Shown: one piece after another, positions 6,693-61,194 of the stretch
Position numbering within the stretch: position 1 is the stretch's first letter
Layout: each line of letters begins with the position of its first letter
Assembly: GCA_958009085.1 (NCBI GenBank)
Contig: OY253670.1
Coordinates: forward strand, 1,364,001-1,428,000
Direction: 5' to 3'
Origin: Protoeuglena noctilucae
Lineage: Eukaryota
DNA length: 64,000 nucleotides
The notes under the pieces: generated by a model
What the model saw: only the letters and a program-made list of their open reading frames with translations
What the model was told of the DNA's origin: nothing
Databases searched by the model: none
Made by a program: the position numbers and the translations under genes

Positions 6693-8975
<2,283 letters not shown>

Positions 8976-9722: not shown

Positions 9723-11376
9723 ATGGGAGCGAGCAGCTCCAGGCATCATGCGCAGCCCGCGCAGCAGCCGCAGAGCAACGCCGGGGGGCAATTCAACAGC
9801 AGGCGAGTAGTGCGAGGCCTCGCAGCGGCCCGGCCTCGCCCTCGCCCCGCGTCGTGGGAGCCCATAAAAGCAGGACACTCTTTGCCCGTTGCTCGCGCAG
9901 GTTCACTAGTCAGATAGCAGGGGCCGCCGCGACGCAGCCGTCTTCCTTTGGACAGCTCCCGACAACGCGGCAGCAGGGCTTCTCGCCCCAGCCCCCGCCC
10001 CGGATGGAACCCCCGCGGGACGCTGCGCCACAGGCTCGGAATCGACAGATGCTCGAGGAAGTGCCCACGATCAAGAATGCCGTCAACCTGAGGTGTGGTG
10101 CGGTCCTCGCGCAACTGTCCAAGATTGTGGGCCGCGTGAGGCGCTGGACACCCACCACGCCTCGCGTTTCGCAGACCCAAGACCCTGCAGGTGTTGCCGA
10201 GGGCCAACGCGCCGCACATCCTTGACATCACGTTTGTCTTTGACGCCACCAAGCCCTGCACGGTCACCACGCACGTCGCGGCCATGGAGATTTTGCGGAC
10301 GATGGAGCTGTCGACCCCGCAGCTCCCGCCCCCGCGCATCCAGGTGAAGCGGGGCTCGCGGGCAGGCCACCCACTGCTCCCGTTTCGCCTGTTGCGGTTG
10401 TCATGGCAGCAGCCCTCTCGCTTGCGCAGTTCAACGCGGGTCTGGGGCAGAAGTTCCAGGACCAGACGGGTCGCCATTGCGTCAACCTATCCTTGTACGA
10501 GGAGGACGCCCTGCAGGCGGCCCAGGGTGCCGTCTACCCCCTGGTGGTGCGCCTCGAGGTCTTGGCAGACGGCAGCCAAGTGAGCGGCGCCTTTAGATGT
10601 GCGGCCGGCCGGCAGCGCGTCACGTCAGCCCTTGTTCACTGGAACCCGCCCTTTGGACCTCCTTTCCTGCAGGGCAAGTCGCTCGACTCGCTGCCGCCCG
10701 GTGCCGCGCAGCCGGAGTGGGTGCAGTCGCAGACGACGTTTGCGGAGCTGAAGAAGGGCGAAGACGGCACGTGGAGCGCAAAGGTCATCAAGCAGAAGAT
10801 CTGGGTGAGCCATCGCCGGAAGCGAGGTGGCCGCGACCTGGGCAGGTGTGTCGTGCGCTTGCCTCACGTGGCTCCCTTCCCCTGCTCCCGCAGTTCGACG
10901 GGACGCCCTACGAGCTGCAAGAGATTTACGGCCTGCAGAGCAGCAACGACCAGGGGGGCGGCGCAGCAGATGACGACAACAGCACGGAGTGCATCATTTG
11001 CATGACGAACGACAGGCGAGGTTGGGCTGCGCAGGGTTGTTGGCATGCGAGGGGAAGGGCGTGCGCCGTTGACTCGGGCCCTCCCCGTCTCTTCGTATTG
11101 TCGCAGGGAGGTGGCGTTGCTCCCCTGCCGTCACATGTGCATGTGCGCCGAGTGCGCTCGGATCATGATGTCACCCAACAACCCCTCGACGAGTCGCGCC
11201 AAGGTGAGCGGAGGGCTGTTTGCAAACGTGGCGCCAGCAGGCTTGGCAGGGAATCAATGGGTTGCACCAAGCATCGGTTCCATGTTTCGCGCCCGCAGTG
11301 CCCTATATGCCGGCGCCGGGTCCACAACTTCCTTTCCATACGCAAGACCGGTGCGCGGGGGCCAGAGAACGTCTGA
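9723..11376 (+). CDS. LOG2/MGRN1-type RING E3 ubiquitin ligase, N-myristoylation motif
   Basis: MGASSS; IKNAVNL; GLGQKF; KQKIW..YELQEIYG; RING CIIC..LLPCRHMCMCAEC..CPICR. Seven introns, two GC-AG. Confidence 0.9.
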
Positions 11377-11683
11377 GCGCTCGTCTTTGCAAGGCATCGG
11401 CCGTTGGCCAGGGCCTGCCGCCCTTGCTCCCCGTTCCCGCCTCACTCTTCGCCTCGCAGCTCCTCTCATCGCCTAGTTGAGCGCGCGCCCCCACGTAGGC
11501 TTGACCTGGCTACGTCATACTCTCGAATTGACTTGTTGGATTTGATGGCGGGGGCTGGGCGGACGTTGAAACTCGGGTCTGACGTCATGGCTCCCCAGAG
11601 CGCGGGCGGTTTATGCCCTGCCCCAATGACAGCATTCACACATTCCTCGACGACCACCCTGCGCCGATACTGCAACTCCTCGC

Positions 11684-14147
11684 ATGCTCACGGCACGTCC
11701 CCACCTTCGGGGGCAGTTGGCGGGCCCCACCCCGACCCCAAAGGGTGCCCGACAGGTGTCCCGGGCGTCGCTTGGCCGTGACGGAGTCCGGAAGAAGCTG
11801 GTACAACCGCCCGAGGTCGGCCGCGATCACGAGCGACACGCGGGCGACGAGGCCTCGACAAGCACGGCTGAGCTCGCGTTTTGGCCCGCGGAACGTCCTT
11901 TCCAGGACGTCGCGCTGGACCGCACACTGGCCCTCTTCAGCGACGTGTTCGTGCATGCCAAGCGGGCGTTCATTCCAGGTGTGCCATGCCCTAAACCTAA
12001 ACCAAGCCTAACGAAGAAGTGTGCCACCAACAGCGTCGTTTGGCTCGTTGCAGAGCGCGATGTTCCGGGGCAGGCTGCAACGACCAAGTCAAAGCCCGTG
12101 GTGCTCGTTCTGGGCACGGGCTGGGCCGCTCACGCGCTGAGCAAGGTCGTGGACCATGAGAGGGCGGAGGTCGTCATCGTCGCGCCCCGCAACTTCTTCA
12201 TCTTCACCCCCATGCTGCCTTCGTCCGCTGTCGGGAGCGTGGAGTTCCGCAGCCTCCTGGAGCCCATCCGCGAGGCCAACCCGCACGTGCAATACTACGA
12301 GGCCGTCTGCGACCACATCGATGTCAAGGAGAAGGCGAGCGTGTGAACGTGCCATGCATGTGCATGTGTCCCGCGCGTCCTCGTCGCAGCAACCGCCTCG
12401 CTTCCGCCCCAGGTGGCCTACTGCACGTCGTCTTGCGGCGGGGACAAGCGCACCTTCCAGATACGATACGACTCGGCGGTCCTGGCCCACGGCGAGGTGC
12501 CTGGCACCTTCAACACCCCGGGGGTGTCGGAGCACTGCTTCTTCATGAAGGAGGTGCAGGACGCCAGGGCCGTGCGGCGCGCCATTGGAGAGGCCTTCGA
12601 GCTCGCCAGCATGCCAGGCACGGACGAGGAGGTGAGGTGCTTGTGGGCCTTGGGCGGCGTGGCACTGAGGCTGCACGATGTGTCAGGCCGATGGTGCGTG
12701 TGCCGGCCCGTCCTCGTGCAGGAGCGTCGTCGCCTGCTGCACTTCGTGGTGGTCGGGGGTGGCCCGACGGGTGTGGAGTATACGGGGACTCTAAAAGACT
12801 TCCTCAAGCAGGACCTTTCGCGAAAGTATCGCAGCCTGATGTCATACGTCCAGGTCTCCCTCGTGCAGGGCCAGAAGAGCGTCCTCACGCAATTCAGGTG
12901 AAAGGGGTGGCGCGCAGGATGAGGCGTGGTCGATGGCTCACCTTACTACCTTACACGCGACCCTTGACGGTGCCCTGCCGCGCTGCCTTCGCAGTGCGGG
13001 GCTGCAGGAGCGGGCGCTGGAGACGCTGACCAAGGAAGGCATCAACGTGCTGCTGAACGAGCGCGTGGTCGAGGTCACGGAGAGGGAGGTCGCGCTCAAG
13101 AGCGGCAAGCGGCTGCCCTACGGCGTGTGCGGTGCGTGGGGGGCGGCGCGCACGCATGCATGCAAGCGAGCACCCATGCAACTCTGGCCTAATCATCCAC
13201 CCCTCTCCCGTGCAGTGTGGTCCGGAGGCAACGCAGCGCGTCAGCTAACGCGGGACCTGGTGGCCTCGATCCCGGAGCAGGGGCGGTGGCAGCACAGCAA
13301 CCCCGACCTCGCCAAGCTCGCCGTGGATCCGTACATGCGGGTGATCGGGGCCGAGGGCGTCTTCGCCATCGGGGATTGCAGCCGGTTGGTCGGGAGGCCT
13401 GTACCGGCCACTGCCCAGGCCGCCGCGCAGCAGGGTGCGTACGTGGCACGCCTGATCAACGAGGGCTGGAATGTTGGCGAGGGCTCGCTTGCGGGCCCCG
13501 CGCCCTGGCGCCCCAACGCGGCCGAAGCTGGAGCGCGGTACACGCCTCTCCTGGCCGACGGCGCGTCCCCCTTAGAGTGGATCGAGCGCGTCTTGCTTCG
13601 CGACATGGGGCTCCCGCTGGTCAACAGCAACGCTCTCACCGAGGTCGGCCTGGCGTCGCTCGCGCGGCGCTGGGGCACGGAGGAGTCCCTCAGGGCCTTG
13701 GAGAGCGTGATGGGTGAGGAGGACGCGGACGACTTCGTCAACAGCGGCCGCGTCAATGACACCGTCCTGGTGGGACGAAGCTCTGCCCTGCCTGTATGCA
13801 GAGGGACGGAGGTGCATGGCACTTGTGCGGGACCTGTGCGGTGCCCATGCTGCTCGCATGATGCCCTGTGGGTGCGTCACAGGAGTGCCAAGGACGTCCC
13901 CGTGGAGTTCCTCCAGCGCCCGTTTGAGCACCTCTCATTGGGCGTCCTGGCCTACCTCGGCGGCGGCTCGGCCCTCACGCAGATCGGGCCCACAGACACG
14001 GTCAGCCTCAAGGCATCGGGAAGCATCGGGTACCTCCTCTGGCGCAGCGTCTACATCACCAAGCAGGTCTCGACCCGCAATCGAGTGCTCATCCTTTTTG
14101 ACTGGCTCAAGAGCAGGGTTTTTGGCCGAGACATCTCCATGCTCTGA
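11684..14147 (+). CDS. Type II NAD(P)H dehydrogenase with N-terminal targeting peptide
   Basis: VLGTGWAA, PRNFFIFTPML, VVVGGGPTGVE, AIGDC, PATAQAAAQQG, LWRSVY..VSTRNRVLILFDWLK..FGRDIS. Confidence 0.92.
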
Positions 14148-16118: not shown

Positions 16119-18359
<2,241 letters not shown>

Positions 18360-18687: not shown

Positions 18688-20642
18688 ATGGAGGGCTCCG
18701 GGGCGTCCGCCACGAGCAGGAACCCTGCCGTGAAGCGCGTCCTGCAGGTGCCCCGCGCTTTTGCGCTGACCGTGGGAAGCGAGGCCTCAGATGTCTCCCG
18801 CATTCTGCGAGCCCTGCCCCTGGTGGCCCTGGCAGACGCGCGTAGCGCCTTCGAGTGGCCCAAGGCCCCCGCCCTCTGGCGAACAGGGGACAGGAGCGCG
18901 CGCCTCCGTTTCCTCGCAGGAAATTCGCGAGCTACAGCGCGAACAGTCGAAGGAGTTTGCGGCCGAGGCGCTCGAGAGCAATCTCTTCGAGTGGATTTTT
19001 GCCATCCGCGGCCCGCTGGGCTCGCCGTTCGAGGGTGGCATCTACGTGGGCCGAATCATGCTCCCACACAACTACCCTATGGCCCCGCCGTCGTTCATGT
19101 TCATGACAGCCAACGGGTGGGCTGCCACCTCGCACCGACACCCACGCTACGCACAAGGCCACGGGCAATGACGGGAGACCCACGTGGACGTCCCTCCCCC
19201 CTGTGGCGCAGACGTTTTGAGCGAGGGGCGAAGATATGCCTGTCTATCTCCCAGCACCACCCGGAGGAGTGGCAGCCGTCGTGGGGAGTGCGCACCGCCC
19301 TCACCGCACTGGTGCCCTTCCTCGCGACCCCCGGCAACGGGGCCCTGGGCTCCCTGGACATGCCGGACGACGACCGCCGCGCGCTCGCGGCCCAGTCGCG
19401 GCTCGCCCCGCCCAACATGGGGTCCCCGGAGGGCCAGACCGTCGCATCCAGGTGCCAGACCGACTGCCCCCGCCGCACGTCTGGGCAACATGGGCGTCTT
19501 CGGCGCGATGAGTGACCCCCCTCATCTTCCTCTTCCTTTCCCAGGCTCCACCGCTACATGCTAGAGACAGAGGACGACTACATCCGGCAGCACACGGGCG
19601 TACCCCAGCCGGCGCCCTCCGATGCGGCCCAGGGGGGCGCCGCGACTGGCCAGGTGCTCGCCAGTGCCTCGGACCGCCGCACGGCAGCCGCGGAGGCGGC
19701 TGAGCGTCGCCTGAGGCACGCAGCGGCCCATGAAACAGAAGCTCAGCCGGAGGGGGCCCCAACGCAGGGGGAGGGTGCACAGGAGGCTCGGCAGGTGGAT
19801 GGGCCCCACAGCGACTCGCCCGCATCGAGCGCCGCGGCCGCTGGAGTCAGTCCCCGAAACTCGTTGAGCCGGAAGCTGTTCCGCCCCCGGACGGAGGGCC
19901 CGCGAGACCCTTTGGGGGGGCCTGGGAGTTCGTGGCCGGGGCGCTCCGAGGGGGCGGCCGTCGTGACCGGTGGTGCGGCAGAAACGGCCGCAGATGTGGC
20001 GCGCGATGTCCCGGAGGCGGGCGCGTCGCACGTGAGGGCTTCACATGGCACCGTCAGCGCGGGGACGGGGCCTGTTTTCGAGAGCCAGACGGAGACCAGG
20101 GAGGCGGCGTGGCGTCCCGCGCAAGATGCGGCACGTCGACGGGTCGCGGGCCGGAGCATCGACGTGACGGGTGCTGACGCTGGGGCGCAAGGCGATGTCC
20201 CTGACCTCACTGGAGCGAGGCCGGGAGAGGAGGGGTGAGCACCCGGTCGCATGGATACGCGCACCGACGCTTGCTGTGATGGGATCCGCTTGATAGGCCG
20301 ACATGGCGCGCTTTCGCCCGCAGGAACGGGGCGGACGGGGATGGCGCCGGTCCGCTGCAGCCGGAGGGTGGTCGCAGGAATATGCAAGCCGGCGCTGGTC
20401 AGATCATCCAGACAAATGCGTACGGCGCCATGATCAGGCAAGCGCTTCTGCTCGGTGCTCATGCTGCCCTGCCAGCGACGGCCGCATGCTGACGGGCAAC
20501 CCCAGTTGCCCGCAGTCCCGAAACAGGCCGCGTGGACCGCATCGACGCCACGCTGACCATCGTGTTGTACGTGCTGCTCCTCTGCATCTTCGTTTTGGCA
20601 GGCAACGTGGCGAGGCGCATTATGTCCCTGGACATCGCATAG
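18688..20642 (+). CDS. Tail-anchored ubiquitin-conjugating enzyme, UBE2J1/UBC32 type
   Basis: NLFEWIFAIRGP, YPMAPP, NGRFE..KICLSISQHHPEEWQPSW; C-terminal TM TLTIVLYVLLLCIFVLAG reached through GC-AG intron 20438-20515. Confidence 0.88.
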
Positions 20643-20956
20643 AGCTGGTTCAAAGCAAAGCAGCACATGCGTCAGCGCGCGGCGCGGCCCTCCGCTAGCC
20701 AGTACATGTCCCGTGACAAGCATGTCCCGTGACCAACCGAGGCTGCTGCCCAGGGCCCCGCCACCGCTGGCGCTGCTCGCGGCAGACGCCGTGGCCCCCC
20801 ACACAAAGCCATAGAGTCATTCTAGTCAGTACGTCACGCGAGCGTCCTGTAGCTCGCCCCGCAGCTCCTGCTCCCCCCGCAAAAGACCCCAACATTGCAA
20901 GCGGCCGACGCCCCGGCCAGGAACCCCGGCCCCCTGGCCCGCCAGGTCAGGCGGGC

Positions 20957-23386
20957 TCACTTGCCGGAGCCGTACATCGAGTTGAAGCTCGACTGCTGGT
21001 TGGGCATGGCCGGCGGCATGCTGTAGCCGTACCCGCCGTAGTTGTTCGTGTAGTTGCCGTAGCCCGAGCCCTGCTGCGGGTACGCCCCGTCCTTGCCGGA
21101 GAAGCCCGACACGGGCGCGGCCTCCTCCGCGCCGTAGCCGCCGCCATAGGCGTAGCCGCTGTTGTAGAAGGAGGGCGTGCCCTGGCCGCCCTTCTGGCCG
21201 GGGCCGGAGGGGTAGCCCTGGTTGGGGAAGCCCGACGACGCCTGCGCGGGGTAGGGCGTCCCGTAGCCCTGCGGCCCGCCGGGGCCGTACTGCTGGCCGT
21301 AGTACATGCCGGGGAACCCCATGTTGGGGTACATGTTGCCGTACATGCCGTAGGCCATCGGCGTCTGCTGGAAGGGCACGCCGTGCCCCATCTGCGGGAC
21401 GCCGCTCGCGCCGGCCAGCGAGCCGGGGGCCTCGGACGCCGTCACGTTGGGGTTGCTGCCGGCGTTCCCGCCGAACTTGCCCGAGCCGGGCGCCTGGCTG
21501 CCCGTGGCCGCCTGGGACGTGGAGGGCGCCGCGGTGCCCTGCCCGTAGTTGCGCGAGTAGGGGTTCAGGCCGCCGTACGAGGGCTGGAAGCTCGGCTGGG
21601 CCGACTGAGACGGGGCAGCCTGCGCGGGCTGCGGCGGGGCCGGCTGCACCTGGGCCTGCGAGCGCGGGGAATGGGGCCAGGTCACTTCCCGACGGGGTGC
21701 CCACCGCAGGGGGCGAGGGGCAGGGGCGTGAGCCTTGCCTGGGCGGGCTCGGGGGCGGCGCTGGAGCCCATGCCGAAGTTGTTGTAGCCGCCAAAGTAGG
21801 ACGGCGTGGAGCCCTGCATGCCGTAGTAGTTGGCGTACTGGCCGGCCTGGTAACCGCCCAGGCCCGGCTGCTGCTGGGGCTGCTGCTGCTGCTGCGCCGA
21901 CGCCTGGACCGTCTGGGTCTGGGCGCTGGCCGCCGCGGGCTGCCGAGGCTTGGGGGGTGCCGGGGCGTCCGAGGGCCCCACGCCCACGCCCACAGACGAC
22001 GCCGCAGGGGCGGCCTCAGCGGCGGCAGTGGCGGCGGCGGCGGCGTGGTTGAGTCCGAAGGTCGAGAAGGCGCTCGTGTCGACCGCGGGGGCCGTGGAGG
22101 CCGCCGCCGTGTCCCGCACGAGGGACAGGCCCCCGAACTGCACGTCCAGGCCGCCCGTGGAGGACGGTTGGAGCGAGGGCGGCAGGCTCAGCACGCCGCT
22201 GGTCGAAACCGCGGCGGCCGCGGCCTTCGAAGGGGCGTCCGCGGACCCGGACGACGTCTGCTGCGGCACTGCGGGGGCGCATTGGGGGTGGTGCCTCCAG
22301 GGTCAAGGGTCACAGCTGGCAAGGCTCCTAGCCAGCCGGCCGCTGCCGCTACTCGCCCATCCTCACCGGCGGCTGCCTCGGCCTCAATCTCCTCGTGGCG
22401 GTACGCGTGGTGGTCGGCGGAGCCGAGGAGGCTCGTGATGTCCTGCTCGACACTCGTGCCCTGGTCTGACTCCTTGGAGGGCTCGGCGGGCGCCGGCGCC
22501 TTCGCGGCGCGCCCGCGGATGATGTCGGCCATCGAGGGAGGGGCGGCCTTGCGCGGCGCGGGGGCGGCCGCGGCGTCGGCGGCCGCCGGCGCAGCCGCAG
22601 CGTCGCCGTTGGCCACCACCACCTCGGCCACCTTGACCTCGCCGGCGGCCTCCTCCCCCTCCGCGCGGCGCGGCTGCGGCCTCCGGCGGTTCTGCGCCTC
22701 GCGGTTCTCGCGCGCGCGCCGCTGCGCCTCCTGTCGAGCCAGCTGAGCAGCCTTCCGGTCCTCCGCCTCCCTCTCCTGCGGCAAGCGCCGGGATCGCACG
22801 CGTTCCGACGTCGTCTCTGCCAACTACCGCATCGCTCCAATCGCACGGCCATTCCCGAGCGCGCCACCGCGCCTCTGGGGTCGCGCGCGTCCCCCCGGAC
22901 ACTCCGCAGCAGCACACCGCAGCCTCCGCGCTCCCGAGCGCGCCTCACCAGCCGCCGCTGCTCGGCCTTGTCCTTCTTGGACATCACCTCCTGGAACGGC
23001 GCGACTGCGGGCACCAAGGCGGCGCGGGTGGGCGCGGGACGGGGTACCGAGGGCCGAGGGCGGGAACCGCGCGATTGCGGCGGGGGAGGGTCGAGGGGCC
23101 CCCGCAGCGCCCCTCCCACGACCATCAGCCAATTAAGACGAGGACGCAACGCCGCAGCCCTGTTCACCCCCCTGCGCGCCGTTCCCAAAACGGGCCTTCG
23201 AGCCGGCTCGCCTTCGAACAGCTTGTTGGATGCCTCGATGATGTCGCCGCCGGCATCCCGCAGAATCTGCTTGATCTCATCGCGCGAGTGTCCCGTGCCG
23301 AGCTGCGCCAGCTGATCGATGGCGTCCTTGCTGCTCAGCCGGGCCCCCCCTCCCTGGCCGGCGCCTCCCTTCCGCTGCCCGGACAT
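20957..23386 (-). CDS. GIP1-N (DUF1296)/UBA-like protein with G/Y/Q-rich low-complexity tail (UBAP2-like)
   Basis: DEIKQILRDAGGDIIEASNKL..PFQEVMSKKDK; LDVQFGGLSL; Y/G/N/Q-rich last exon. Two GC-AG introns. Confidence 0.72.
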
Positions 23387-24120
23387 CCCTGCGGAGCAAC
23401 CGCGGCGATGCCCGTCAAATCGCGGGCGCTGGAAGGCGGGGACGGCGCAGAGCGGGCCGGGCAGCCGGAGCGGCCGGGCGCCAGGAGAGCGCGCCGCGAG
23501 ATCGGGGGCGCCCGACACCGGGCTCGGCTCATCCCCCCTGTCGATGCCGATGCAGTGCGGCGCGGCCGTGTCGCCCCGCGACCCAGGGCGACGCGGGGGG
23601 GAGCTGGGCGTTGGCACCGTGCTCCCGTCGCGGGGGCGCGATTCCGCGGCCCCGCTGCCCCCCCAGTCGCTGTCGGAGCCGGCACGGCCCCGCTGGGCAA
23701 TGCGCGGGCCCCTCGCCTGGTCCGGTCTGCGAGCCCGTGCGTGGGGGACGCCCTTCCGCTCCTCGGAGTCGGATGAATCAGTCGATGAGCGACGGTGGGA
23801 AAAAGCGACACAGTGCGCATCTGTGGCGATCGGTGGCAGGGCGCCATCGCAACGACGGCGCGAAAGCAAGCGCTGGCAGCGAAACCGCCAGTAGTGCTTG
23901 GGCTCCTCGTGCCAAAAGTGCTTCTCCCCTCGCTGTGTAGGCAGCGACGAGGATATGGCGACGATCCGTGCATCCCGCTGCGGAGTTGCTGAGGCGCTGC
24001 CTTTCTTTTGTCCCCATTGACAGGAAGAACTGCTGCGCACCCCTGCAGGGCCCCCGGTGCGCTTGGCGCCCGCTCGGAGATAACGCAGCGCCACTGTAGG
24101 AGGACGGCCGTCCTGGAGCC

Positions 24121-26978
24121 ATGGCTTCGAAGCGCAAGGTCAGGGGCTTGGGTTGGGGGCGCACCGCGCCACGGCTGCGGCGCGTGACAGAACAAGTCGG
24201 AGGCGCCCTTTGCAAATGCGCTGCTGCATGCCTTGTTCGTATGGATCTGTAGCTCGGGAGGCGTGATCCCTGCTTCGCATGCGGGTGACGGCCCTCGCAC
24301 CCCCCCCAGAGGGCCCCGGGCTCGTTCCGGCTTTCCTGTCGCCACCCTGGCATGTTACCCGCCGGTGGATCACGCGATGCTCCTCGGGCAAGCTGGTCCG
24401 CTCATCTTTTGCCCCGATGCGCGCGGCCTGGACGCGTGGCGCCGACGGTGCTGCGGGTCGGCGTGGCGCGATCCTCGGCCCGACCCGGGTGGCCCGGGGC
24501 GCTCCAGCACGTCCCGCGTGCCGTTTACGGCACGATCGTTTGCGTTGCAACGCCTCTGCGCCTGCGCGCCGTCGCGTCGTCCCCCCTCGCTCGTCTCTGT
24601 GACCACCTCCCAGCTGGCCCCGCCCCCACAGCGTGCCTTCGCCCGCGCCGCAGATCTCCTACTTTTACGATTCCGACATCGGGAACTACTACTATGGCCC
24701 GGGCCACCCCATGAAGCCGCACCGGGTGCGCATGGCCCACATGCTCGTGCTCCACTACGGCCTCTACAAGAGCATGAAGTGCCTCGCCCCCGTGCCCGCG
24801 GACGCCGTGGACATGACGCGCTTCCACAAGAAGGAGTACATCGACTTCCTTTCCAAGGCGAGACGCCCTGCTGGGGGGGCTGGGGGGGCGCGACGGCGGC
24901 GTGCGATGGTGTGGCTGGGCACGTCGCTGTGCCGACCCGCTGGAGCCGTCGTGGGCGCAGGCGAGCCCCGACGGAGAGCATCGCTCGGAGCGCCGGCAGT
25001 TCAACCTGGCGGGCGACGACTGCCCCGTCTTCGATGGCCTGTGGCCCTACTGCCGCTCGTACGTGGGCGCGACCCTCGGGGGCGCCGTGGAGCTCAACTC
25101 GGGCGCCGCGGACATCGTCGTCAACTGGTCCGGGGGTCTGCACCACGCCCACAAGGCGGAGGCGTCGGGCTTCTGCTACGTCAACGACATTGTGCTCGGC
25201 ATCCTCGAGCTCCTGCGCTACCACCGCCGCGTGCTCTACATCGACATCGGTGAGACCGAGTGCCGGCGCGCTCCCTGCGGCCCTCGGCTAGTGGGCTGCC
25301 TGTCAGCAGCATGGCCTCGTTGATTGCCTTGTTGGAGCTGGAAGTCGAACACGCACCCCTCGGGACCCCCCCCAGACCTCCACCACGGGGACGGCGTGGA
25401 GGAGGCCTTCTACACGACGGACCGCGTGATGACTGTGTCCTTCCACAAGTACGGCGACTTCTTCCCGGGAACAGGGGACATCGACGAGGTCGGGGAGGGC
25501 AAGGGCCGTGGGTACAGCCTCAACGTGCCCCTGTCGGACGGCATCACCGACGAGGCGTACGTCTGGCTCTTCAAGACGGTCATGAAGGCGAGGGGTCGGA
25601 AGTCTCGGCCTCAAGCCGCGGGGGGCGGCTGCGGCCGCGGCTGTGGCCCACGAAGCCGAGCGGCTCTCTCAATCTCTGCGCCCGCAGAAGGTCGTGGAGG
25701 TGTTTGACCCCGAGGCGATCGTGTTTCAGGCTGGGGCCGACAGCCTGGTGGGCGACAAGCTCGGGTGCTTCAACCTCACGACGCGGGGGCACGGCGAGTG
25801 CCTCAAGTTCATGCGGAGCTTCAACCTCCCCATGCAGGCGAGGGCGAGGTGCGAGGCGGAGCGTCGAACAACCCACGTGTCGTTTGTTCCAAAACCCCGT
25901 CTGCGCCAGCGACGCAGGTGCTGGGGGGTGGGGGGTACACGATCCGCAACGTGGCGCGGTGCTGGGCGTACGAAACGGCCATTGCGGTGGGCCAGGAGGA
26001 CCAGGTCGGGCCGCAGGTGCCCTCCCACGCCTTCTTCGGTGAGATTAAGCGCGGGGCGTGGTGGCGGCGCCGGGGCCGGGCAAGACCTGCCATGACGCGG
26101 CCGCGCCCGCACGCATGCACCCACGCAGAGTACTATGGCCCTGACTACGAGCTGCATGTCCGCCCGGACCCCGGCCGCAAGGACGAGAACGACCGCGAGG
26201 TGCTCGACAAGGTGGTGGCCCGTGTGCTGGAGCGTCTGTCGCGTCTGGGGGGCCCCCCGAGCACGGAGCTGAAGGAGCGGCCCGAGTCGCTGATCAACGA
26301 CGAGGTGGAAGTGCGACCCAAGGCGAGGCGCTGGGGGATGGCCAGCGGACGTGATGCGGGGTCGGTGGGCGCACGAGCAGGAGCAGCAACTTGCATCGCC
26401 CGGCGCCCTCGCAGAAGGAGGACCCGGACCAGCGGCCTTCCATCCTGGGAATGGCGCAGGGCGCGCGTGGCCCGGGGGAAGTGCATTTGGACGACTACGA
26501 GGGGCCGGAGGAGAAGCCGAGCAGGCACAGGGACGACGGGAGCACTGCGGAGGCCCCCGGCACATCGCGGGGCGGGAGCGGGGAGGCGGGCGCAGGGGTG
26601 GTGAACGGTCGGGGAGAGCAGGGCGGGCATGGCGCGGAGGGGGGTCAGAAGGCGGAGGGCGAGGGGCTGGGTCCGCGCGGCAGTGGGGCCGAGCCGCCGG
26701 AGCCCCTCCCCGGCGTTGGTGCGGCGGACGGTGCCGGCGGCACGCGGCGTGTGGGATGCAGCAGAATCATCGCCCTGTGCGCGCACTGACGAGCGTGCGC
26801 TTGGTGCCGTGCAGGTCCCAGTCAGGACGGCAACCCCGGGGAGGGGCAGCCTACGCGTGTGTCTGTGGTGGGGAGCGCGTCGCCGGCTGAGGAGGACGTC
26901 GAGATGGCGGACGGCGCAGAGGGTGGGGCGGATGCGCAGGGTGACTCCAGGGGCAAGGGAGGGGAGGGCAACGCATAG
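24121..26978 (+). CDS. Class I histone deacetylase (RPD3/HDAC1/HDA19 type)
   Basis: [72 protein letters not shown]. 515-nt first intron; at least three GC-AG introns. Confidence 0.95.
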
Positions 26979-27109
26979 ACTGGGCATAGACTGGTGACGC
27001 CTGCACTGGGTGCCCAGGACGAGCCAAGAGCGACAGAGGAGGGCACCTTGTTTGCTACGACGTCAGCAAGATTGAATGAGGACTAGGTTTCGCGAGCGCA
27101 TTGCAGTGG

Positions 27110-28489: not shown

Positions 28490-30690
28490 ATGCAGATATC
28501 GTCGACGGCTGCTCAGGTATCGCGCTCGCGACGGGGGCGAGCGATGTTGCCCACGCCTTCGAGGCGCTGCAGCGAGTCGATGCGTCCGCGCCTGGCCCTG
28601 TTCGCGCGGTCACGAAACGGTTTCGTGTCGATTGATGCATGTGGGCTTTCATCGACGCAACATAGCACCCTTGCGAGGCACCCACCTCGTTGAGCTTCGC
28701 TGCGAGGTTCCGCGGCATGGCAGAGCCCATCCAAGACCACGACCCGCTGCTTCTTCCGCAGATCCATCGGGTCGCCTGCCACTCCAGGCGCCCGGCCCCG
28801 CGGCCCCAGCAGCTGGGTGCCGCGAGGGGAGTGGTGAGAGACTGGCGCACGGGGCGGCCCGCAGGCGATCATAACTCGGGCCGATGCGCTCTCGAAACTG
28901 TTGTAGCTTCGCCCGCCCTGCAGGTCCGACCCCGCCACTGTCCCTCTGCACAGCCGGACGGGGAGGTCTTGGTGCATGCTGCGGGTGATGATGGCCAGGC
29001 CCGTCGACCAAGCCTGGCAGCCAAGCTGGATGGTCAACCTGTCAAGGCAAGTCGCGAGGGCTGAGTCGTAGCCTGGCTCAGGGTGCGACGTGGTGGTTAT
29101 GACCCGCCTGAGCATGGCCCCCTCCGTGTGGGTGCAGCCCATGGGCCTGGCTGGCCGCGTGCTGAGCAAGATCGGTGGAGCTGGCAAGGCTGCCATCCTG
29201 GCGGGTCTCGCCATGACCACGGCGTCCCTGGCCATGCCGCCTAGCGCACAGGCCCGCACGCCTGTGGCTACTGCGGCTGCCCAGGACGCTGCGCCCTCCC
29301 GGGCCGCCCAGCCCCGTCGGGCTGACCCCGCCGTCAACCCGGTGGCGGAAGTGGCCAGCGGGCCGTCGGGCGGCGTGACGGTCGACTCGGGAAACACCGC
29401 ATGGGTGCTGACGTCGACCTCGCTTGTGCTGTTCATGACCCTCCCAGGGCTGGCTTTGTTCTACGGAGGCCTCGCGCGGCAGGGCACCGTGCTCACGGTG
29501 CTGGCGCAGTGCATGTTCGTGACGTCCATCGTCACGGTCCTGTGGACGCTGTTCGGCTACTCTCTGACCTTCTCTGACGCGGGGATGAAGGAGGGCGTGG
29601 TGTCGCTGGCGTCCTTCATCGGCAACATGGACAAGGCGCTGATGAAAGGCGTTGAGACGGGCATCGTGGGCACCATCCCGGAGTCCCTGTGGTTCTGCTT
29701 CCAGCTCACCTTCGCCATCATCACCCCCGCGCTCGTGGTGGGCGCCTTTGCCGAGCGCATGAAGTTCTCCGCCTCCATCCTCTTCCTCACGCTGTGGTCC
29801 TGCCTCGTCTACTACCCCGTCGGCCACATGGTCTGGGCCGGCCCGGGGTCCTTCCTCGGGGACCTGAACGCCCTGGACTTTGCCGGCGGCCTCGTGGTCC
29901 ACCTCACGTCGGGGGTCGCAGGCGAGCTTTGCTTGCTCCGGGGGCCGCCTGTGGGACCGCTGCCAAACGCGGGGCTCCAACCCGTCCTACCTCGGCCGTG
30001 CTCGCAGCCCTGGTCGCGGCGTTGATGGTGGGCCGCCGGCGCAAGGCGACGATGGCGCCCCACAACTTGCCGATGGCCGTCACGGGCGCTGGGATGCTGT
30101 GGGTCGGCTGGTTCGGCTTCAACGCGGGCTCGGCCGTGTCCGCGTCGACGGCTGCGGCCATGTCGATGGCTGTCACGCAGATGGCGGCAGCCTCCGCCGC
30201 GCTGGCGTGGAGCCTCACGGATTGGGTGCAGCACGGTCGGCCCAGCGTTGTCGGCCTCATCTCGGGCATCGTCGCGGGCCTCGTGGGCATCACGCCGTCG
30301 GCCGGGTTCGTGGGCCCCGTGGGTGGCCTGGCCATCGGCGCCATCACGGCCCTCCTGTGCCGCTTTTTCGTCGAAGTCGTCAAGCCCAAGTTCGGGTACG
30401 ACGACGCGCTGGACGTGGTTGGCGTGCACGGCGTCGGAGGCTTTGCGGGCAACGTCCTGGCCGGAGTGTTTGCGGCCCCCTACTTCGGGGGTAAGAACAT
30501 CGCCATGGGCATGGCCGCACAGACGGGCGTCCAGCTGATGGCCTCCCTCGTGGTCATCGGCTACACGGCAGTTGTCACGGCCGCCGTCCTGGCGGTGGTC
30601 GGCGCTGTCTGCGGCGGGCCCCGCGTGACGATCGAGGAGGAGACGTTCGGCATCGACATGGCGTCCCTGGGCGAGACCGCGTACCAGTGA
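28490..30690 (+). CDS. AMT: Ammonium transporter, AmtB/AMT2-MEP type, with long N-terminal targeting extension
   Basis: DSGNTAWVL..LFMTLPGLALFYGGL, FQLTFAIIT, DFAGGLVVH, WFGFNAGS, DDALDVVGVHG (twin His). Introns 28517-28761, 28834-28923, 29047-29137 (GC) and 29922-30007 (GC). N-terminal exons are less certain than the core. Confidence 0.92.
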
Positions 30691-42248: not shown

Positions 42249-43901
42249 ATGGTGCATCATTGTCACTGCTGCCATCAGCGAAGGGGGGAAGACGAGACGG
42301 TCGTGTGCTGCGGGACCAGCACCGGGCGACGGCACGCGTGGTGCACGCGGTGCATACGGGTACGCAGCCGGCCCCGGCGATGTGCGCTTGCGCGCATTCG
42401 AGGCTCACGCTGGCAAGCTACGCGAGCTTCCTCTCGCGCCTGCCGCAGAGGTGGCTGAAACAGAGCCCACAGCTCGCGCGCGACCCCGACGCGAGGTGGC
42501 AGTGTCCCAAATGTAACGGAGGCGTGTGCCCGTGCCCCGGATGTAGGAGGAGCCGGCGGCAACCTGCTCTCTGGGCAGGTGAATCACCTGCCCTGCGTGC
42601 GGCGTGTCGATTGAGCCGCACCGCCGATGCCGTCGCTCAGCGACCTGTCCAGACTCCGCCGCGGATGCAGGGGACGACGATGGTTCGGACGACTTTGCCT
42701 CTGTCGAACCCGCGGGACTGAGCTCCCAACAAACCCCATGCCCAGCTCCCAGCACACAGCGCCGCGGCGACGCGTCATCTCTCGACCCCAATGAGCGCGC
42801 TGCTGACGCGAGCGCGCCGAGAAGCGCGAGGCCTACTCGCCGCAAGCGCCCTCCCGGCCCCGACCTGCCCGCCACGCCCGTCCGAGATGTGCTCTCGGCG
42901 CTGCGGAGCCCCCACGCGCAGTCCCCGCGCGCCACGCCCGCGAGTGCCGTCTCAGCGCACGAGGGACCTTTCGCGGGCTTCCTCTTCGTGAGCCCTTCCC
43001 AGAGCCCTGCCTCGCACGCCGTCCCGACTCCCGCTCGGGCGGACGCCGCAGCAGGCTCGCATGGAGAGGTGCGGTCGTCGAGGCTCTCGCCCGGCTCTCC
43101 GTCACTGCCATCGTCGGGCCCGCCGCCGACTCCCGAGCGAGTCGCACCGCGGCGGCCACCCGTGAGACGGCACCCGCGTCCGCAGCCGGCGCACCGGATC
43201 AAGCTGGCAGCGCTCCAGGGACCCGCTCAGCTGTGGACGCGCAGGCGAGGGCGTGCTCATTGAGATGCTCCCTGGCGCGCACCGCTAGACCCGGGCGGGG
43301 AGCATGGTAGCACGGTGCATGCGCTGCGCTTCACGCGGACCCTTCCCTTGCGCCTTGGGTTGCAGGAGGCCAGACTGGGAGCCTCCGCCGTCCCCGTGGG
43401 GGTTTCTGCAGGAGGAGCTGTGGCGGGAGCCTTGGAAGGTCCTCGTGGCGTGCATGCTGCTGAACCAGACGACGGGGGCGGCCGTGCGCGACGTCATCTG
43501 GCGGCTGTTTGAGGCCGTGCCGGACCCGGAGCGCGCGGTGCAGGTGGACGCGGCGGTTATCGAGGGCATCATCCGCCCGCTGGGGCTCTTCCGGAAGCGC
43601 TCCGCAGACATCCAGCGCATGTCGCGGGAGTTCATGCACGCCCCATGGACGGACGTCGGGCAGCTGCATGGGTGAGGCGCCGGGGATGGACGCATGCCTG
43701 GCATAGAGCCTGGCCTGCGCGGTGACCTCGCCCATGGTCGTGCCTCCCAGGGTGGGCAAGTATGCCTCGGACGCGTACAAGATGTTTGTGGAGGGGCGGT
43801 GGCGGGAGCTGGCCCCCGACGACAAGGAACTCAAGAAATACCACGAGTGGCTCGTCGCCACGGGCGGCCAGGGTACGGGATTACGCAGGGAGGCCGGGTA
43901 G
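42249..43901 (+). CDS. zf-4CXXC_R1-like zinc finger fused to MBD4-type HhH DNA glycosylase
   Basis: Finger CHCCHQR..C..HAWCTRC..WQCPKCNGGVCPCPGCRR. Glycosylase PPPSPWGFLQE..PWKVLVACMLLNQT..PLGL..LHGVGKYASDAY..PDDKELKKY. Confidence 0.85.
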
Positions 43902-44001: not shown

Positions 44002-47000
44002 TCAGCCCTCCAGCCCCTGCGTTCCCGGGCGCAGCGCCACGTCCCATGCCGAGTCCAGGATGGCCGGCGCGGCGTCCCCTTGGCTGAAGCCGTCAGGCGC
44101 CTCCGCCGCGTCCGACTCCTTGGGAGGTGGTGCAGGGCGCCACCGCATCGCCCCCTTCAAGTCTGCGATAGCGGCGGGAGGAGCAGCGTCACGCAGGCAC
44201 CATTGCATCCCCGACAGCGTTGGCTTCCCCCCGAGCCTTGCCGCGTCTCACCGTGGCTGAACCGCCGCTCGAGCGCCGACCGCCGCGCGGCGTAGACGGT
44301 GCCCAGCGCACGCTTGTAGTGGTCCGGATTGTGGTAACGCGAAATGGAGCCGTCCACGCCGTAGGCGGGGCCTGCCAGAATCTCAAGGGGGTGCGGGCTG
44401 TCCATGAAGGCCAGGAAGGCCTCGCGCACGCAGCCCGGGTCGGAGAACTCCGGCTCAGGCTTGGCGCGGGCGGCGGCGGCGCGGCGGAGGTCGTTGGCGT
44501 GGCGTCGCGCGTTGGCGCGGGACGTGGGTGTGGGCGCAGAGAAGGACCAGAGGCCGGGAGTGGGGGGCAGAAGAGGGTGGTAGCCGTCCTGCAAGCAGAC
44601 GGGTCTTCGCGGTCAGCGGTGCCAGTTCCCACTGTTGGGTCCAACCCATGCCAGGACAGCGCTGCCGGCCGCAGCGCTCGTCACCTGCCCGACATAGACC
44701 TGGTCCTTGTGCGGCTGGAGAGCAAAGACGCGCCCGATGTGCGAGTACATGAGCACCTTGCCCGAAAGGGGCGACGCCGACTTGAGGGGACCGTGGTCGC
44801 TGTACTTCTTGCCCCACGACCGCATGAAATCGCGGACGGGGCTGTAGTCGCAGGTGAAGGCGCGAGGCACGATATCGCGGTGCATGATGATGTTGCGCAC
44901 CATGTCCTGCAGAGCCAGGCGCGGGGGGAGCACCGATCAGCACCGTTGCGTGTGGCTGATGGCGTGCCGTGCCTGCCCCATCGCCCGGCCCCTCACCTCC
45001 GGCAGGCCGAACCGCTCGAGGATGCTGCCGTGGCTGTCGGACGTGTCGGGCCGGTCGCACGCCTCGCCGTGGTAGTCGGCGTGGCACCCCGTGGCCGAGC
45101 ACTCCCAGGCGTCCCAGAAGGCCGAGGCGACCCCGAAGGTGTACGTGGGGGCCATGGCCCAGGCCGGCAGCACCCCCCGGTGCTTGTACATGAGCATGAG
45201 GGCGATGCCCAGGGCGCCCCCCAGCGAATGCCCCGTGAAGCACACCTTGGCAAAGGGGCTCCGGGCCAGGTGCTCCTCCACCAGGGGAAGCAGCCGGTCA
45301 TACAGTTGCATGGCCACCGAGTAGACGCCCCGGTGGATGATGACGCCGATCCGCGGGTCCTCGAACTCCACGGGCTCGAACGTCAGGTTGGTGATCCAGC
45401 TCTCGAGGTTGTCGGTCCCCTGCACCACGACGTACCGCGTCTGCGACACGGGGTCGTCCGCCACGTACCACTCCACGGGGAGGGTCGCACCCTGGTCGGG
45501 GCCGCAGGGGTACTCCGGGGAGTACTCGCGCGACGCCGCCCCCTCCCCCGCTGCCGCCTTGCTCTCCTTCTTCTCCCGCTGCCACGCCAGGAAGGACGTG
45601 TTGCTGGTGCCCTCCAAGATGCCCGCCACTGCGAGCAGACGCAGGCGGCGCGGGCTCGGACTCGACGGACGAGGGGCGACGGAGGAAGCCGCCGCTCGCA
45701 GCGACCACGCCTCACAAGTGCTGCTGATGGCCGACCCCGCGTACCCCGCCGCATCCGACACGTGCCCCGCCAGCCGCTCGTGCAAGGGCCTCCCGGCCTT
45801 GACCGCCGCGTCCTTGGCCTCCTCCAGCTTGACGCTCACCACGCCCTGGGGCGTCGGGGACCCCTCCGCCGCCGACCCCGGCGCCCCCTCCGGGCGGGCC
45901 GTGACCGTCACGTCCACGCGCGCGGCCACCTTGGGCACGCGCGAGATGCGGTCCAACGCGTACGCCGTCGCCTCGTCCATCTGCCCGTGCGCCGCTGCCC
46001 GCGGCTCCTCCGGCGGCACGTCGCACATGCCGTCCGCCATGGCGAAGACGCCGTGGGCCGAGTCGGAGGGCTTGAACAGCGGCAGGTCGCAGGCCCGCGA
46101 GGTCGTGATGAGCACGAGGCGGTGGAGACGCATCAGCGAGGACGGCGTGAGCTTGTGGAACTGCGGACAGTGCAGCGGCCGGCCTCCCGTGGGCCATGCG
46201 ACGCGGGCTGGGGGCGGGCTGCGCGGCAGGCCGGCTCGGCGCCACGCAGACGCATCCCCAGCGCGACTATCACCTTGTAAGTCAGGCAGCAGAGGTCGCA
46301 GAGCATGCGGACGTAGCGCATCTCGCTCGTGCTCGCTGGCTTCAGGTACGACACCACGTCAGCCAGCACCGAGCGCTTCTCGTTGCCCTGCGAGCGCGGG
46401 GAGATGCGCACGCTTACAAGGACGCGGGCGCAGGGGCGCGAACCTCCCGCAACGCGCCGGGCGCGTGCACGTCCCGGGACGCAGCGACCCGCGTGTCGGG
46501 CCCGCGGCTCGCCTTGGCCGCCGTCCCCTCCGCGAGGTCCTCTCTCCGGGGGTCCGAGACGCTGGCCGTGCGCGCGTACTGGACGAGGCGCTCGGTGCTC
46601 AGGTAGCCCCCCACCGTCCCCAGCCACGGACCGACATGGCCCACCGTGCTCGTGGCCGTGTTCCACAGCGTGGACACCGCGGAGGTCCACAGCCCGCCCT
46701 CATTCCTAGCAGGGCGCTCCGGGGACCGCTCGGGCTTGTCGCGGTCCACGGGGGCGTCGACCGGCGCGAGAACCGAGACGACCGGCGCCCGGGCCGTGCC
46801 CTTCTTGCCCTGCGCGCCGGGGCGGGCGACGTTAATTCGAAAAGCGAGCCGATGAAAGAGGGAGACGGGCGCAGATAGTCGAGGGCGCGACGCGGCCGCT
46901 GCCCGAGTGCGCTGCACCCCCGCGAATGAAAGGCTCCGCTCGCCCGGGGTCGACGGGGCCCGGCGCGGCTCGAGGGCGGCATCGGAAGGCGACACGGGGC

Positions 47001-47650: not shown

Positions 47651-48306
47651 TCACTTCTCGTTCTGCTGGCGTGCCGTTTTGAGGAAGAGGCTGATCGCCT
47701 TCGCCTCATCCACCTGCTGAGTCATGAAGTGCTTCCCCACCGCGACGACGAGCTGCTCCTTCGTCGAGTCCGGGCCCACGTCCGAGAGCTGCGGGGGGGA
47801 AGGAGATGGTCACGGCCTTGAGACGAGGCGGATCTCACCCGCTGCGAGGGCAAGGGACCGCGCGGGGGCCGCAGCCGGCAGGTCCGTCAGCGCGCCCGGC
47901 GCCCAAAGGGGGGTGTGCCACGCCCCCGCTCGGCACACGACGACGTGCCCTCGCCTTGTAAAACTTGCGGTAACGCTTGAGCGCCTCCGTGTCCAGCTTG
48001 TGAAAGTTCACTCGCACCCCCAGCCTGCGGAGCGCGGCCAGGGCGGCCGCCAGTGCCGCAGGGGCCCGGCGACGCCGAGAGCAGCCGCTGTGGCGCGGGC
48101 CACCGGCGACGCCGCCGCATCCGAGCGCCGCCGCGCGCGCACCGGTTCTTGTTGCGCAGGTCCGTCCACGCCTTGGGCAGCGTGCCCGGCTGCACCGTCC
48201 CAATGACCGTCTTGGGCCGCCTCGCCCGCGTCTGCTTGGCCGTGTCGTCCACGCCGTTGGCCCGAGCCCCCTCCGTCCCCGCCCCGCTGTCCGCGTTCTG
48301 GTCCAT
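47651..48306 (-). CDS. SAP30: SAP30 Sin3-binding-domain protein
   Basis: VNFHKLDTEALKRYRKFYKL..STKEQLVVAVGKHFMTQQVDE..ISLF. GC-AG intron 47789-47954. Confidence 0.85.
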
Positions 48307-58153: not shown

Positions 58154-59112
58154 ATGGCCAGTGACACCGACGCATGGTGTTGCCCCGTGAGACGCTCAGC
58201 GGTTGAAGTGAAGCAACGCAATGGTGGTGCACCATACCCATACCTGGTCACAATGCCATTGTGGCTTACCAGGCAGGCGACGAGGGCCATTGCGTGGAAC
58301 GCAAATGGACCCTGCTGCCCCTGCCACCCCTGGACTTCCGCTGGCTTGCCGTCGCATGTCATGTGCATGCCTGATAGCCTTGCCCGAGTCTGCCACAGCA
58401 GCACAGCGTGCCATCGTGGAAGTGGATACCTGATGACACCGCTCGCTGTTTCTGAGAGCGTGACGGGGTGAAGCAGGTCGGTGGATCCATGGAGGCACTG
58501 TGCACGTAGCTGGCGTGAGACGACGGGGAGATGTGTGGGTTGAAGAGGAGCGAGCACGCATGCCGTGCATCCACATGCATCCACGGCATTTACATGCCCG
58601 ACGTGCCCGACGTGCATGACATGACTAGCAAGGGTCGCCCAGCGCTGTCGGTCGGACTTTGATCATATTGACGTCGTGGGTATGTAAGGGACCTGACGTG
58701 CAGGTGGATAGCATTGCTAAAAACCGAACCCTGACAATGCAACCATTTGAAAGCGGAGGGCCGTTTGATGGAACGGTACACACGCATCCAAGAAAGCGTC
58801 CTTGTCGTTTTTAGGGCGTGCCGTTGCGTGTGAAGGATCTTGTGAGCACGAGGCGCTGGAAACAAAGGGCGAGCAATGCGCCAGGCTAGCCAGGCAAGGG
58901 GTGTACGGGGCGGGTCCCCGCCGTGGCCGGCAGTGCGTCACAAAGCCATGCCAGCTCCTTGAACGCTGGCAGTCGGCTAGATGGAGCTGTACCTGCTGAC
59001 CTCATCAGGCGGCGAGCTCAGCGGCAGCTGCGATGGCAGCACGCATGGTTATTGCCAACCTCGGTCAATTCCATTGCGCAAGAAGAGATGGCGTCTGCCA
59101 GACGATCTGGCG

Positions 59113-61194
59113 TCAAGCGGACGAGCGGACGCTCGCCAGCACCCGCTTGTTGCTTGAGTGACGCTCTGAAGCGTTCAGGCGACCATGAAACGCTTGACCG
59201 CCGTACGACAGAAGCTTGGGCAAGCTCCGTGGCTCTCTTCCCTGCGAGCAGGGTTAGGTAAGGGTACAACGCAGTGTTGAATTCTCTCGCATCCAGCCAT
59301 GCATCTTATGTTCCAATGCGTCGCAACGCCTGTAGCCTGTACACCTGGGGGCAGTGGCCGGAAAGCTTAACTACGCCTGAGCCAACCAGAAGGACGTCGC
59401 CAACGCCATTACCCCAAAGGCGGACCAGCTGCCGCCCCCTGTTCACAGATAAGCTGCCGTGTATCACGAGCTTCCCACCGCCCGCGCTGACGGCAGGAAA
59501 CAAACTCCCCATCACGTCTAAGCCGAACGCCACGCGCGCAAAGCGCTGCCTCGCCCTTGGCTGACGACCCCACACACCCCGCTCCGCTCGATCCGACACG
59601 ACTCCAGGTTCACGGTGCCCATGTCATCCGCGCGTGCCCCCCATGCCTGTGCGCCTACGATGACGCAGCGATGCATCTCCACCTGAGAAGATGGAGAACA
59701 GGCGCCCTGAGATGATGTTCACCTTTGGGTTAGGATTAAGCCCCAGAACCTAGTGTGAGTTGCGAGATGAGTCACACCTGGCCGCCCTCCGTGGCCCAGA
59801 CGCCGCACTGCCCTGGACAGGAAATGGTGCAGTCCTCCAACCGAACTCGCGCGTTTGCTTTGGCCAGCACACCTCCGCCCTCGATGGCAACGGATTTGGG
59901 CAATACGTGAGCGATCCCTGCCACGCCATCCACTTCAACCATGCCTCCAGCCTTGAACTGCAACCCCACCCCCTCCAGGATGATTAACCGACGGATCCGC
60001 ACCGACCTGCCGACCCAAGCCGTCCCTGCCTCGCGCTGAACCTTCTGCGCCCGTGAATTATTCCTGACTGCCGGCCAGATCCCATCCTCATCCCCGGTCG
60101 CCGTCTCCTGGCCCGTCTCCGTCTCCTCCCCACCAGGGGTCCCGAGAAGCAACGTGGGAGTGTCCCTCGCCCAAGATGCACTTGCTTTGGCGACGGCATT
60201 CGTTTGCTCGTCGCCTGGGTCCGGCAGCTGCATGCTGCGGACTTTGGCCGACACGGCGGCAGCCCGGACTGCATAGCCGAACGGCCGTGCTTGCTCCTCC
60301 GGCCCGTGGCTCAGGGCATCCGCTGCCTGGAGTACTCCTACTGCCCCTCCGTTCAAATCCACCAGCAGTCCCCCCGACATACCGGGGTTCACAGGTGCGT
60401 CGCACTTGAGAAGCCAGGGGTCGTCCGGACTGGCGTCCCTGCGCAGGACGTGCAGCGACCTCAGATGACATGTGCTCCTGGCGAGACGCATGCCGTGACC
60501 CCGCCTTATGCAGCGCCCGTGACTCACCTCCCAGTCACGGCTATGCCAACTTCCAACCGCACGAAGCCCGACTTGTGATACGTGAGTGCGGTCGCACGCA
60601 GCCTGCACGTGCGGAGCAGATATGGCGCGTCGTGAACAGCACACTCAAACTGGAACCCACCCGCTCTCACGGCACATAGGTGCGCCTCCACGTGGTCATG
60701 CTGATGGCCCGCTCGAAACGGTGGCCCTCTGTCGGGCACAGGAGGGCGAGGTCGAGCGGGCCGGAGTCCCAGTCCAACAGATTAGCGGTCCCGAGATTGA
60801 CGAGATCCCCGTGGTCGACGAGTCGCGCCCTGACTGTCTGCACAGACGGCATCGGTACCCGGTCAAGCGGCGCCCACAGTCAAGCCACGCTCGTGTAGCA
60901 TCTGCGTAGCATCCGCGTCACCGCGGGGCAAACACGCTTTCTGAGCACCGCAGTGAAGCAGACCGTGTTGCCTCGGATGGGAAGGTGTGCGCAGGTAAGG
61001 ATATACGGGCTTGGGTCGCCCTCGCCCTGCACATCCCGCACCACCACGCCCGTCCCGTGGGCCTCGTGGCCCCAAAAATCGAATGTAAGGTGCACTATGC
61101 TCTTCCGAGCGTCCGCATCCCCGGGCAGGCCGCGCAGTTGGCTGGCTGCGGACCCGAAAACCGGGCCCTCTGGGGCCTCGTTGACGCGCTCCAT
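59113..61194 (-). CDS. Trypsin-like serine peptidase fused to right-handed beta-helix-like repeats
   Basis: GTGVVV..YILTCAH, DLALL, NPGMSGG; then VRLEDCTIS..GVWATEGG, VEMHRCVI, VNLESCRIERSGVCGV. About five frame-preserving introns; 3' end inferred. Confidence 0.7.

Follow-up and report, generated by a model that had tools for sequence, protein, structure and literature searches.

Frequent GC-AG introns with a strict donor context in a GC-rich 64-kb stretch of Protoeuglena noctilucae DNA

In a 64,000-nt stretch of Protoeuglena noctilucae DNA (GenBank assembly GCA_958009085.1, contig OY253670.1, positions 1,364,001 to 1,428,000 of the forward strand; hereafter the window, numbered from its first letter), about one intron in five begins with GC instead of GT. 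In a curated ab initio set corrected with RNA, 24 of the window's 127 introns (19%) are GC-AG, and the rate given by an earlier sequence-only reading of the same DNA, about 17 of 130 (~13%), was fair, if slightly low. That reading had listed 17 main GC donors, of which 12 are now supported by evidence beyond the motif, one is supported in part and four have a gene prediction as their evidence; none was refuted. The support for the 12 comes from joints in RNA contigs (four donors: 21738, 23211, 29047 and 29922), from intron-less open reading frames (ORFs; three), from length arithmetic (one) and from Pfam profiles (four). With a probability of roughly 0.85, we take them to be ordinary introns of the U2 type, the C at +2 being made good by full U1 pairing elsewhere and made common by a G+C content of 69%.

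Splicing was read from contigs of three RNA runs, which were aligned together with those of one DNA run (X7) to positions 19800-39799. As this stretch was picked for holding the most claimed sites, the rate found there is biased upward. Among the 37 joints found in RNA contigs, 15 were listed and 14 were usable, each with a single canonical placement. Five of the 14 are GC-AG (donors -21738, -23211, -23716, +29047 and +29922) and nine are GT-AG, and none of them occurs in X7. At the GC-AG joints no GT..AG placement is possible within the range of alignment ambiguity. Four of the five GC donors are among those claimed earlier. The joint 25034>25946 was rejected as an intron, because it is present in the DNA run too and is thus a short-repeat artefact. 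Contigs of X4 are unspliced even through introns confirmed by X1 and X2, and therefore speak neither for nor against any intron. For the donor at 20438, length arithmetic gave three solutions. All of them start with GC, but the intron length is normal just in the claimed one. The introns identified from RNA contigs are as follows (lower-case letters are exonic and the slash marks the splice site).

20438..20515, plus strand: GC-AG intron, cag/GCAAGC..CCGCAG; length arithmetic on RNA contig X1 record 1, also predicted ab initio
21656..21738, minus strand: GC-AG intron, cag/GCAAGG..TCGCAG; joint in X1 and X2, absent from X7, one placement
23005..23211, minus strand: GC-AG intron, aag/GCGAGC..CCGCAG; joint in X1 and X2, one placement
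23389..23716, minus strand: GC-AG intron of 328 nt, absent from the earlier list, cag/GCGAGG..CCGCAG; joint in X1 and X2, one placement
29047..29137, plus strand: GC-AG intron in an ammonium transporter gene, aag/GCAAGT..GTGCAG; joint in X1 and X2, missed by the gene finder
29922..30007, plus strand: GC-AG intron in the ammonium transporter gene (SGVA/ALVAA); RNA-contig joint, Ammonium_transp profile position 163 then 165

Two environmental ORFs on short contigs are identical to spliced products of the window, and fix three GC-AG introns together with seven GT-AG introns. P0001 is a 478-aa ORF on a 1542-nt contig, 474 aa of which are identical to the spliced product of a helicase gene across five introns. 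P0121, a 679-aa ORF on a 2251-nt contig, maps exactly in six blocks, with one block boundary at the intron at 12335. In-frame GT alternatives had been noted at 12335 and 26323, and they are indeed present at both; the GT at 12335, however, is not used, as shown by P0121. Taken together, the joints in X1 and X2 compared with X7, and the intron-less P0001 and P0121, show GC-AG introns that are absent from mature RNA yet present in DNA.

12335..12412, plus strand: GC-AG intron in an NDH2-type NADH dehydrogenase gene, aag/GCGAGC..CCCCAG; P0121 block boundary
37499..37578, plus strand: GC-AG intron in a CHR24/ERCC6L-like SNF2 helicase gene (VFSQS/KVMLD); P0001
37697..37782, plus strand: GC-AG intron in the same helicase gene; P0001

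Pfam scans over 142 predicted exons were used as a further test, in which profile positions should continue across an intron. Such continuity was found across 24858, 25588, 25838, 29922, 47954 and, with the Pyr_redox_2 profile, 12335. In all, RNA contigs or intron-less ORFs demonstrate that nine GC-AG introns are spliced, and profile continuity supports four more. At 11016 the support is partial, since the downstream exon begins at zf-C3HC4_3 position 15 and the upstream exon has no match even at E 10.

24858..24960, plus strand: GC-AG intron in a class I histone deacetylase gene; Hist_deacetyl position 50 reached by the upstream exon, downstream exon from ~51 (extrapolated)
25588..25687, plus strand: GC-AG intron in the same deacetylase gene; the exon ends at profile position 220, and residue 2 of the following one is at 223
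25838..25917, plus strand: GC-AG intron in the same deacetylase gene (FNLPMQ/VLGGGG); profile position ~271 at the exon end, 276 at the next start
47842..47954, minus strand: GC-AG intron with donor 47954 and acceptor 47842 or 47789; the exon ends at SAP30_Sin3_bdg position 14, and residue 3 of the following one is at 16; the 3-nt exon modelled after 47842 is doubtful
11016..11106, plus strand: probable GC-AG intron in a RING E3 gene; partial support, predicted in 3/3 runs

The rate was determined with a two-strand Viterbi gene finder, self-trained on the window with starting GC-donor priors of 3%, 30% and 60%. All three converged, giving 30-33 GC donors among 151-157 introns (19-22%). The gene finder recovered 17 of the 20 sites named by the sequence-only reading (three lay beside its main list) and 10 of the 14 RNA joints, while 59554 and 2896 were without a prediction from it. 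Its introns longer than 400 nt are gene merges and were rejected, as were the predicted introns 13770-13907, 33890-33952 and 39093-39266, which are contradicted by ORFs or RNA contigs. The curated set consists of introns of 50-300 nt that each of the three runs predicted and introns seen in RNA only, minus the three contradicted calls and one duplicated copy. In the supported subset, 13 of 42 introns are GC-AG, a share biased upward by aligning reads to the 20 kb with the most claimed sites. By themselves, the 13 supported GC donors would make up ~10% or more of all introns, far above 2% (binomial p=2e-5 against 160 introns). The bare motif AGGCRAG is weak evidence, as it occurs 40 times on both strands versus 27.1 +/- 5.7 in dinucleotide shuffles, 2/100 of which reach 40; the case therefore rests on the splicing evidence. 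The motif is present at each of the 20 named sites, at 19 of them exactly at the position given (59554 as gg/GCGAG); 2897 was off by one, the G lying at 2896.

A tight AG/GC[GA]AG donor context, set against looser GT donors, had been proposed as well, and it was confirmed. Among the 42 supported introns, the full AG/GY[GA]AG context is found in 13/13 GC donors versus 2/29 GT donors (Fisher p=4e-9). Counted the other way, GC is used by 13/15 donors with the full context and by 0/27 others. The curated set of 130 agrees, with GC in 20/33 full-context donors and 6/97 others. Within the full context, the frequency of C at +2 (13/15 and 20/33) is compatible with the C/(C+T) of 0.67 in intron interiors (binomial p=0.17 and 0.35). 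GT donors tend to have either the exonic AG or RAG at +3 to +5 and seldom combine the two (odds ratio 0.10 among the 103 GT donors of the curated set; 2/29 supported). Unused motifs in exon sense number 0 for AGGT[GA]AG and 5 for AGGC[GA]AG. In other respects GC and GT introns are alike: their median lengths are 92 and 91 nt, they share CGCAG as acceptor, and they resemble each other in composition. Every GC donor is of the form GC[GA]AG and not GCATCC, the motif of U12-type GC donors (PMC1557818).

The following mechanism would account for these data, assuming a canonical U1 small nuclear RNA (snRNA) that still recognises the donor. C at +2 would be a mismatch to U1, tolerated only when all other pairing positions are filled, namely exonic AG, then G, G or A, A and G. 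At 69% G+C, a change from T to C at +2 would be favoured. In fully complementary donors this change would be nearly neutral and meet little counter-selection, so most of them would have become GC, whereas incompletely paired donors would keep GT; the expected outcome is about one GC-AG intron in five. We infer both the rule of U1 pairing and the part played by GC pressure from the measurements; that GC-AG donors compensate the +2 mismatch by a stronger consensus has been described (PMC1557818). Relaxed recognition at +2, GC pressure and compensating U1 pairing, all raised by the sequence-only reading, fit the measurements. A variant U1 or U6 was its alternative; a variant U1 is not needed, and in the GC donors C at +2 looks like a mismatch to a canonical U1 that has to be paid for elsewhere.

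Several points weigh against this explanation. Canonical U1 pairing in the source organism is an assumption. The evidence for GC pressure is a correlation. According to PMC3033335, genomic G+C and GC-AG share are weakly linked once the three most GC-rich species are set aside, and Micromonas RCC299, with 64% GC, has only 2.7% GC-AG introns. The gene finder made at least three false calls, and four claimed sites (9803, 34375, 43245 and 46512) have prediction as their sole evidence. Moreover, the rate is uneven, with 16/43 GC donors in 19.8-39.8 kb versus 10/87 elsewhere in the curated 130 (before the last removals). Uniform GC pressure does not predict such unevenness, which thus weighs against it; it may also come from gene-finder errors.

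It is extremely improbable that the GC donors were mis-inferred and that transcripts use nearby GT donors. In-phase GT dinucleotides do lie within 60 nt of each of six sites tested, the mild excess of AGGCRAG (40 vs 27 expected) lends such doubt some weight, and the same four claimed sites depend on prediction. However, the nine GC-AG junctions fixed by RNA contigs or intron-less ORFs admit no GT..AG placement within the alignment ambiguity, which refutes mis-inference for those nine, and the transcript across 12335 uses GC despite the GT alternative available there. GC donors have been linked with introners in Micromonas pusilla. Copies of such a mobile family, each bringing its own GC donor, as proposed for that alga, would explain the uniform lengths (quartiles 85-110 nt) and stereotyped ends of the introns here. 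We nevertheless hold this to be very improbable. An all-versus-all blastn of 128 curated introns revealed no sequence families, returning only a pair from von Willebrand A-domain (VWA) paralogues and one 15-nt match; no sequence is shared beyond the splice sites as among introners, and length and acceptor are equal in GC and GT introns.

A lineage-specific change in the splicing machinery (the U1 5' end, the U6 ACAGAGA box, U5 or Prp8) might instead let C at +2 serve at least as well as T and so drive the excess. It would suit GC being the majority form of the fully complementary donor (13/15 supported, 20/33 curated), and base modification or proteins of the U1 small nuclear ribonucleoprotein are left open as causes in other algae in PMC3033335. 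We find it improbable nonetheless, as the absence of GC donors from weak contexts (0/27) is the signature of a mismatch needing compensation. Furthermore, the same paper gives canonical U1 5' ends for Aureococcus and both Micromonas despite very different GC-AG shares. Nothing in the window favours a variant either, as it contains no snRNA gene: Rfam at the gathering threshold returned 0 hits there, and ARAGORN also gave 0 hits. Selection might also keep GC donors as weak regulated sites, for alternative splicing or intron retention, acting alongside compositional drift and not replacing it. GC donors are reported to be associated with alternative splicing in animals and plants (PMC2490688), and intron retention is reported to be high in Emiliania (PMC4028052). 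We consider such regulation unlikely here, since GC donors occur in housekeeping genes, with several possible per gene. Finally, ordinary U2-type introns with compensated U1 pairing could be seen from the opposite side. The +2 base might be effectively free once the rest pairs fully, with GC as the normal 'perfect' donor and GT donors systematically incomplete. This would imply a ceiling on U1-donor pairing, with C at +2 as one way under it and not drift alone, an idea that we regard as rather doubtful.

The finding is a further instance of the pattern published for GC-rich algae. Haptophytes and dinoflagellates had been named as precedents by the sequence-only reading, which missed the closest ones, Aureococcus, Micromonas pusilla and Chlorella. 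Iwata & Gotoh 2011 (PMC3033335) give GC-AG shares of 39.6% in Aureococcus anophagefferens, 22.2% in Micromonas pusilla and 7.7% in Chlorella sp., tie them to G+C, and report a canonical U1 5' end in two GC-AG-rich algae where examined. A 2024 preprint gives 14-17% for Aureococcus and ~14% for Pelagomonas calceolata (bioRxiv 10.1101/2024.10.30.620910). None of the papers in the library that was searched mentions both Prasinoderma and GC-AG. Like these four algae, the window combines G+C near 66-70%, a GC-AG share far above 1%, AG acceptors and an explanation by GC content. Its 19% lies within their range, as a window rate beside their genome-wide ones. G+C in the window is 62-72% per 4 kb and ~69% overall, above the >~65% that marks GC-AG-rich algae. 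Unlike Aureococcus, with 0.4-0.9 introns per gene (bioRxiv 10.1101/2024.10.30.620910), the window belongs to a different, green lineage and carries ~2 introns per kb. Another point of difference is that its introns form no repeat family.

Similarly, Feldmesser et al. 2014 (PMC4028052) describe Emiliania huxleyi as a GC-rich, intron-rich marine alga with transcript-verified GC donors, unchanged AG acceptors and an explanation by GC content. In that haptophyte GC is the majority overall (56-61% of donors), whereas in the window GC outnumbers GT only where the donor is fully complementary and accounts for about one fifth of the total. With the U2-type GC-AG introns of animals and plants described by Sheth et al. 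2006 (PMC1557818), the window shares the U1 mismatch at +2 and the higher match at exonic and +3 to +5 positions. Their share is 0.4-0.9% there versus ~19% in the window. A further difference is the window's GC-donor consensus, in which +3 is G (GCGAG), just as in its GT donors (GTGAG). A deacetylase exon found 80 loci in metagenome contigs, the best being 80% identical over 70 residues and too distant for testing a GT-to-GC switch; for an ammonium-transporter exon, no relative was returned from such contigs.

The source appears to be a chlorophyte-like green alga. Prasinoderma coloniale agrees with the window in G+C (69.6-69.8%) but not in gene structure, its annotation showing 2.2 exons per gene and introns of 225 nt; Chloropicon, with fewer than one intron per gene, does not fit either. 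Aureococcus was rejected on the ground that the best named relatives come from green algae, and a protein atlas yielded no usable taxon. The window is densely packed, intron-rich and eukaryotic, with ~81-96% G+C at third codon positions. The best named relatives of the CHR24/ERCC6L-like SNF2 helicase are those of green algae (66-69% identity), followed by land plants (~60%). In a quick tree, the helicase sits on a long branch within chlorophytes, without a close relative and weakly joined with a pedinophyte (SH-aLRT, a likelihood-ratio branch support, 89; fork drawn open). Pfam identified homeodomain, DDT, HARE-HTH and WSD domains in adjoining exons, a combination which we take to be plant-type, and a ciliary B9 protein. 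Words sampled from a 10-kb stretch were about half present in four marine metatranscriptome runs, and all present in four runs under one organism label.

Gene prediction that allows for GT donors only would mis-model about one intron in five in the source alga. Apparent read-through ORFs are already present in a public protein collection: P0002 (near window positions 37.8-38.7 kb), which continues into two introns, P0122 (near position 9.9 kb) and P0123 (near positions 50.3-51.9 kb), which has the same length as the genomic ORF 50348-51922; a representative search returned only this genomic read-through ORF, P0123. With this result, an intron-dense green alga whose window shows no introner families joins the few GC-rich algae in which GC-AG introns are known to abound. 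The clean split between full and partial contexts offers a possible test of how strictly the spliceosome reads +2. The finding itself opens no new question.

The other claimed or predicted GC-AG introns, and one duplicate copy, are listed below. At 26323, HDAC1 residues 336-392 align with the upstream exon, no relative of solved structure was found for the downstream one, and the GT alternatives are in phase. A homologue search for the RING exon and 9803 returned the window's own ORF only, and Pfam and solved-structure searches gave nothing usable for the exons flanking 34375.

9803..9900, plus strand: claimed GC-AG intron, predicted in 2/3 gene-finder runs within a merged model
34290..34375, minus strand: claimed GC-AG intron in an HDAC11-like gene, predicted by the gene finder
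43245..43365, plus strand: claimed GC-AG intron ahead of an HhH-GPD glycosylase exon, predicted by the gene finder; read-through runs into a stop after 16 nt of intron
46388..46512, minus strand: claimed GC-AG intron in a class 3 lipase gene, predicted by the gene finder; flanking exons without a Pfam match
26323..26414, plus strand: predicted GC-AG intron in the variable tail of the class I deacetylase gene; gene finder, 3/3 runs
2212..2312, minus strand: predicted GC-AG intron absent from the earlier list, caa/GCGAGC; gene finder
6718..6803, minus strand: predicted GC-AG intron absent from the earlier list, gag/GCGAGT; gene finder, outside the TsaD profile match
39679..39764, plus strand: copy of the 29922 intron in an identical 672-nt duplicate; profile position 163 then 165, not independent and excluded from counts

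The last of these lies in a direct duplicate (29487-30158 = 39244-39915), whose copies of 672 nt are identical, lie 9757 nt apart and hold part of the ammonium transporter gene with its GC-AG intron. The DNA-run contig of this duplicate has ~2x the depth of its neighbours.

Several observations were made on the deacetylase genes. A run of 24 A follows 27090 in an RNA contig and probably marks where the class I deacetylase mRNA is polyadenylated; the convergent B9 gene, predicted at 27110-28018, has its 3' end ~20 nt away. Another deacetylase gene, which we take to resemble HDAC11, contains an in-frame TGA at 33891-33893 on the minus strand. When the TGA is read through, the Hist_deacetyl match is unbroken (profile 83-293, E 9.8e-40; 1e-31 for the downstream part by itself). 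The TGA is spanned by three RNA contigs with neither splicing nor letter differences, and Rfam gave no hit resembling a selenocysteine insertion sequence (SECIS) in 32700-34000. The TGA could be a selenocysteine codon, a read-through site or a nonsense allele.

Units like CCCTAAA, the plant-type telomere repeat, were found at 11984-12000 within the GT-AG intron 11979-12053. Two VWA gene copies (5096-6537 and 56995-58153) are 97-98% identical at a distance of ~51.9 kb, and their GT-AG intron is kept at 97%.

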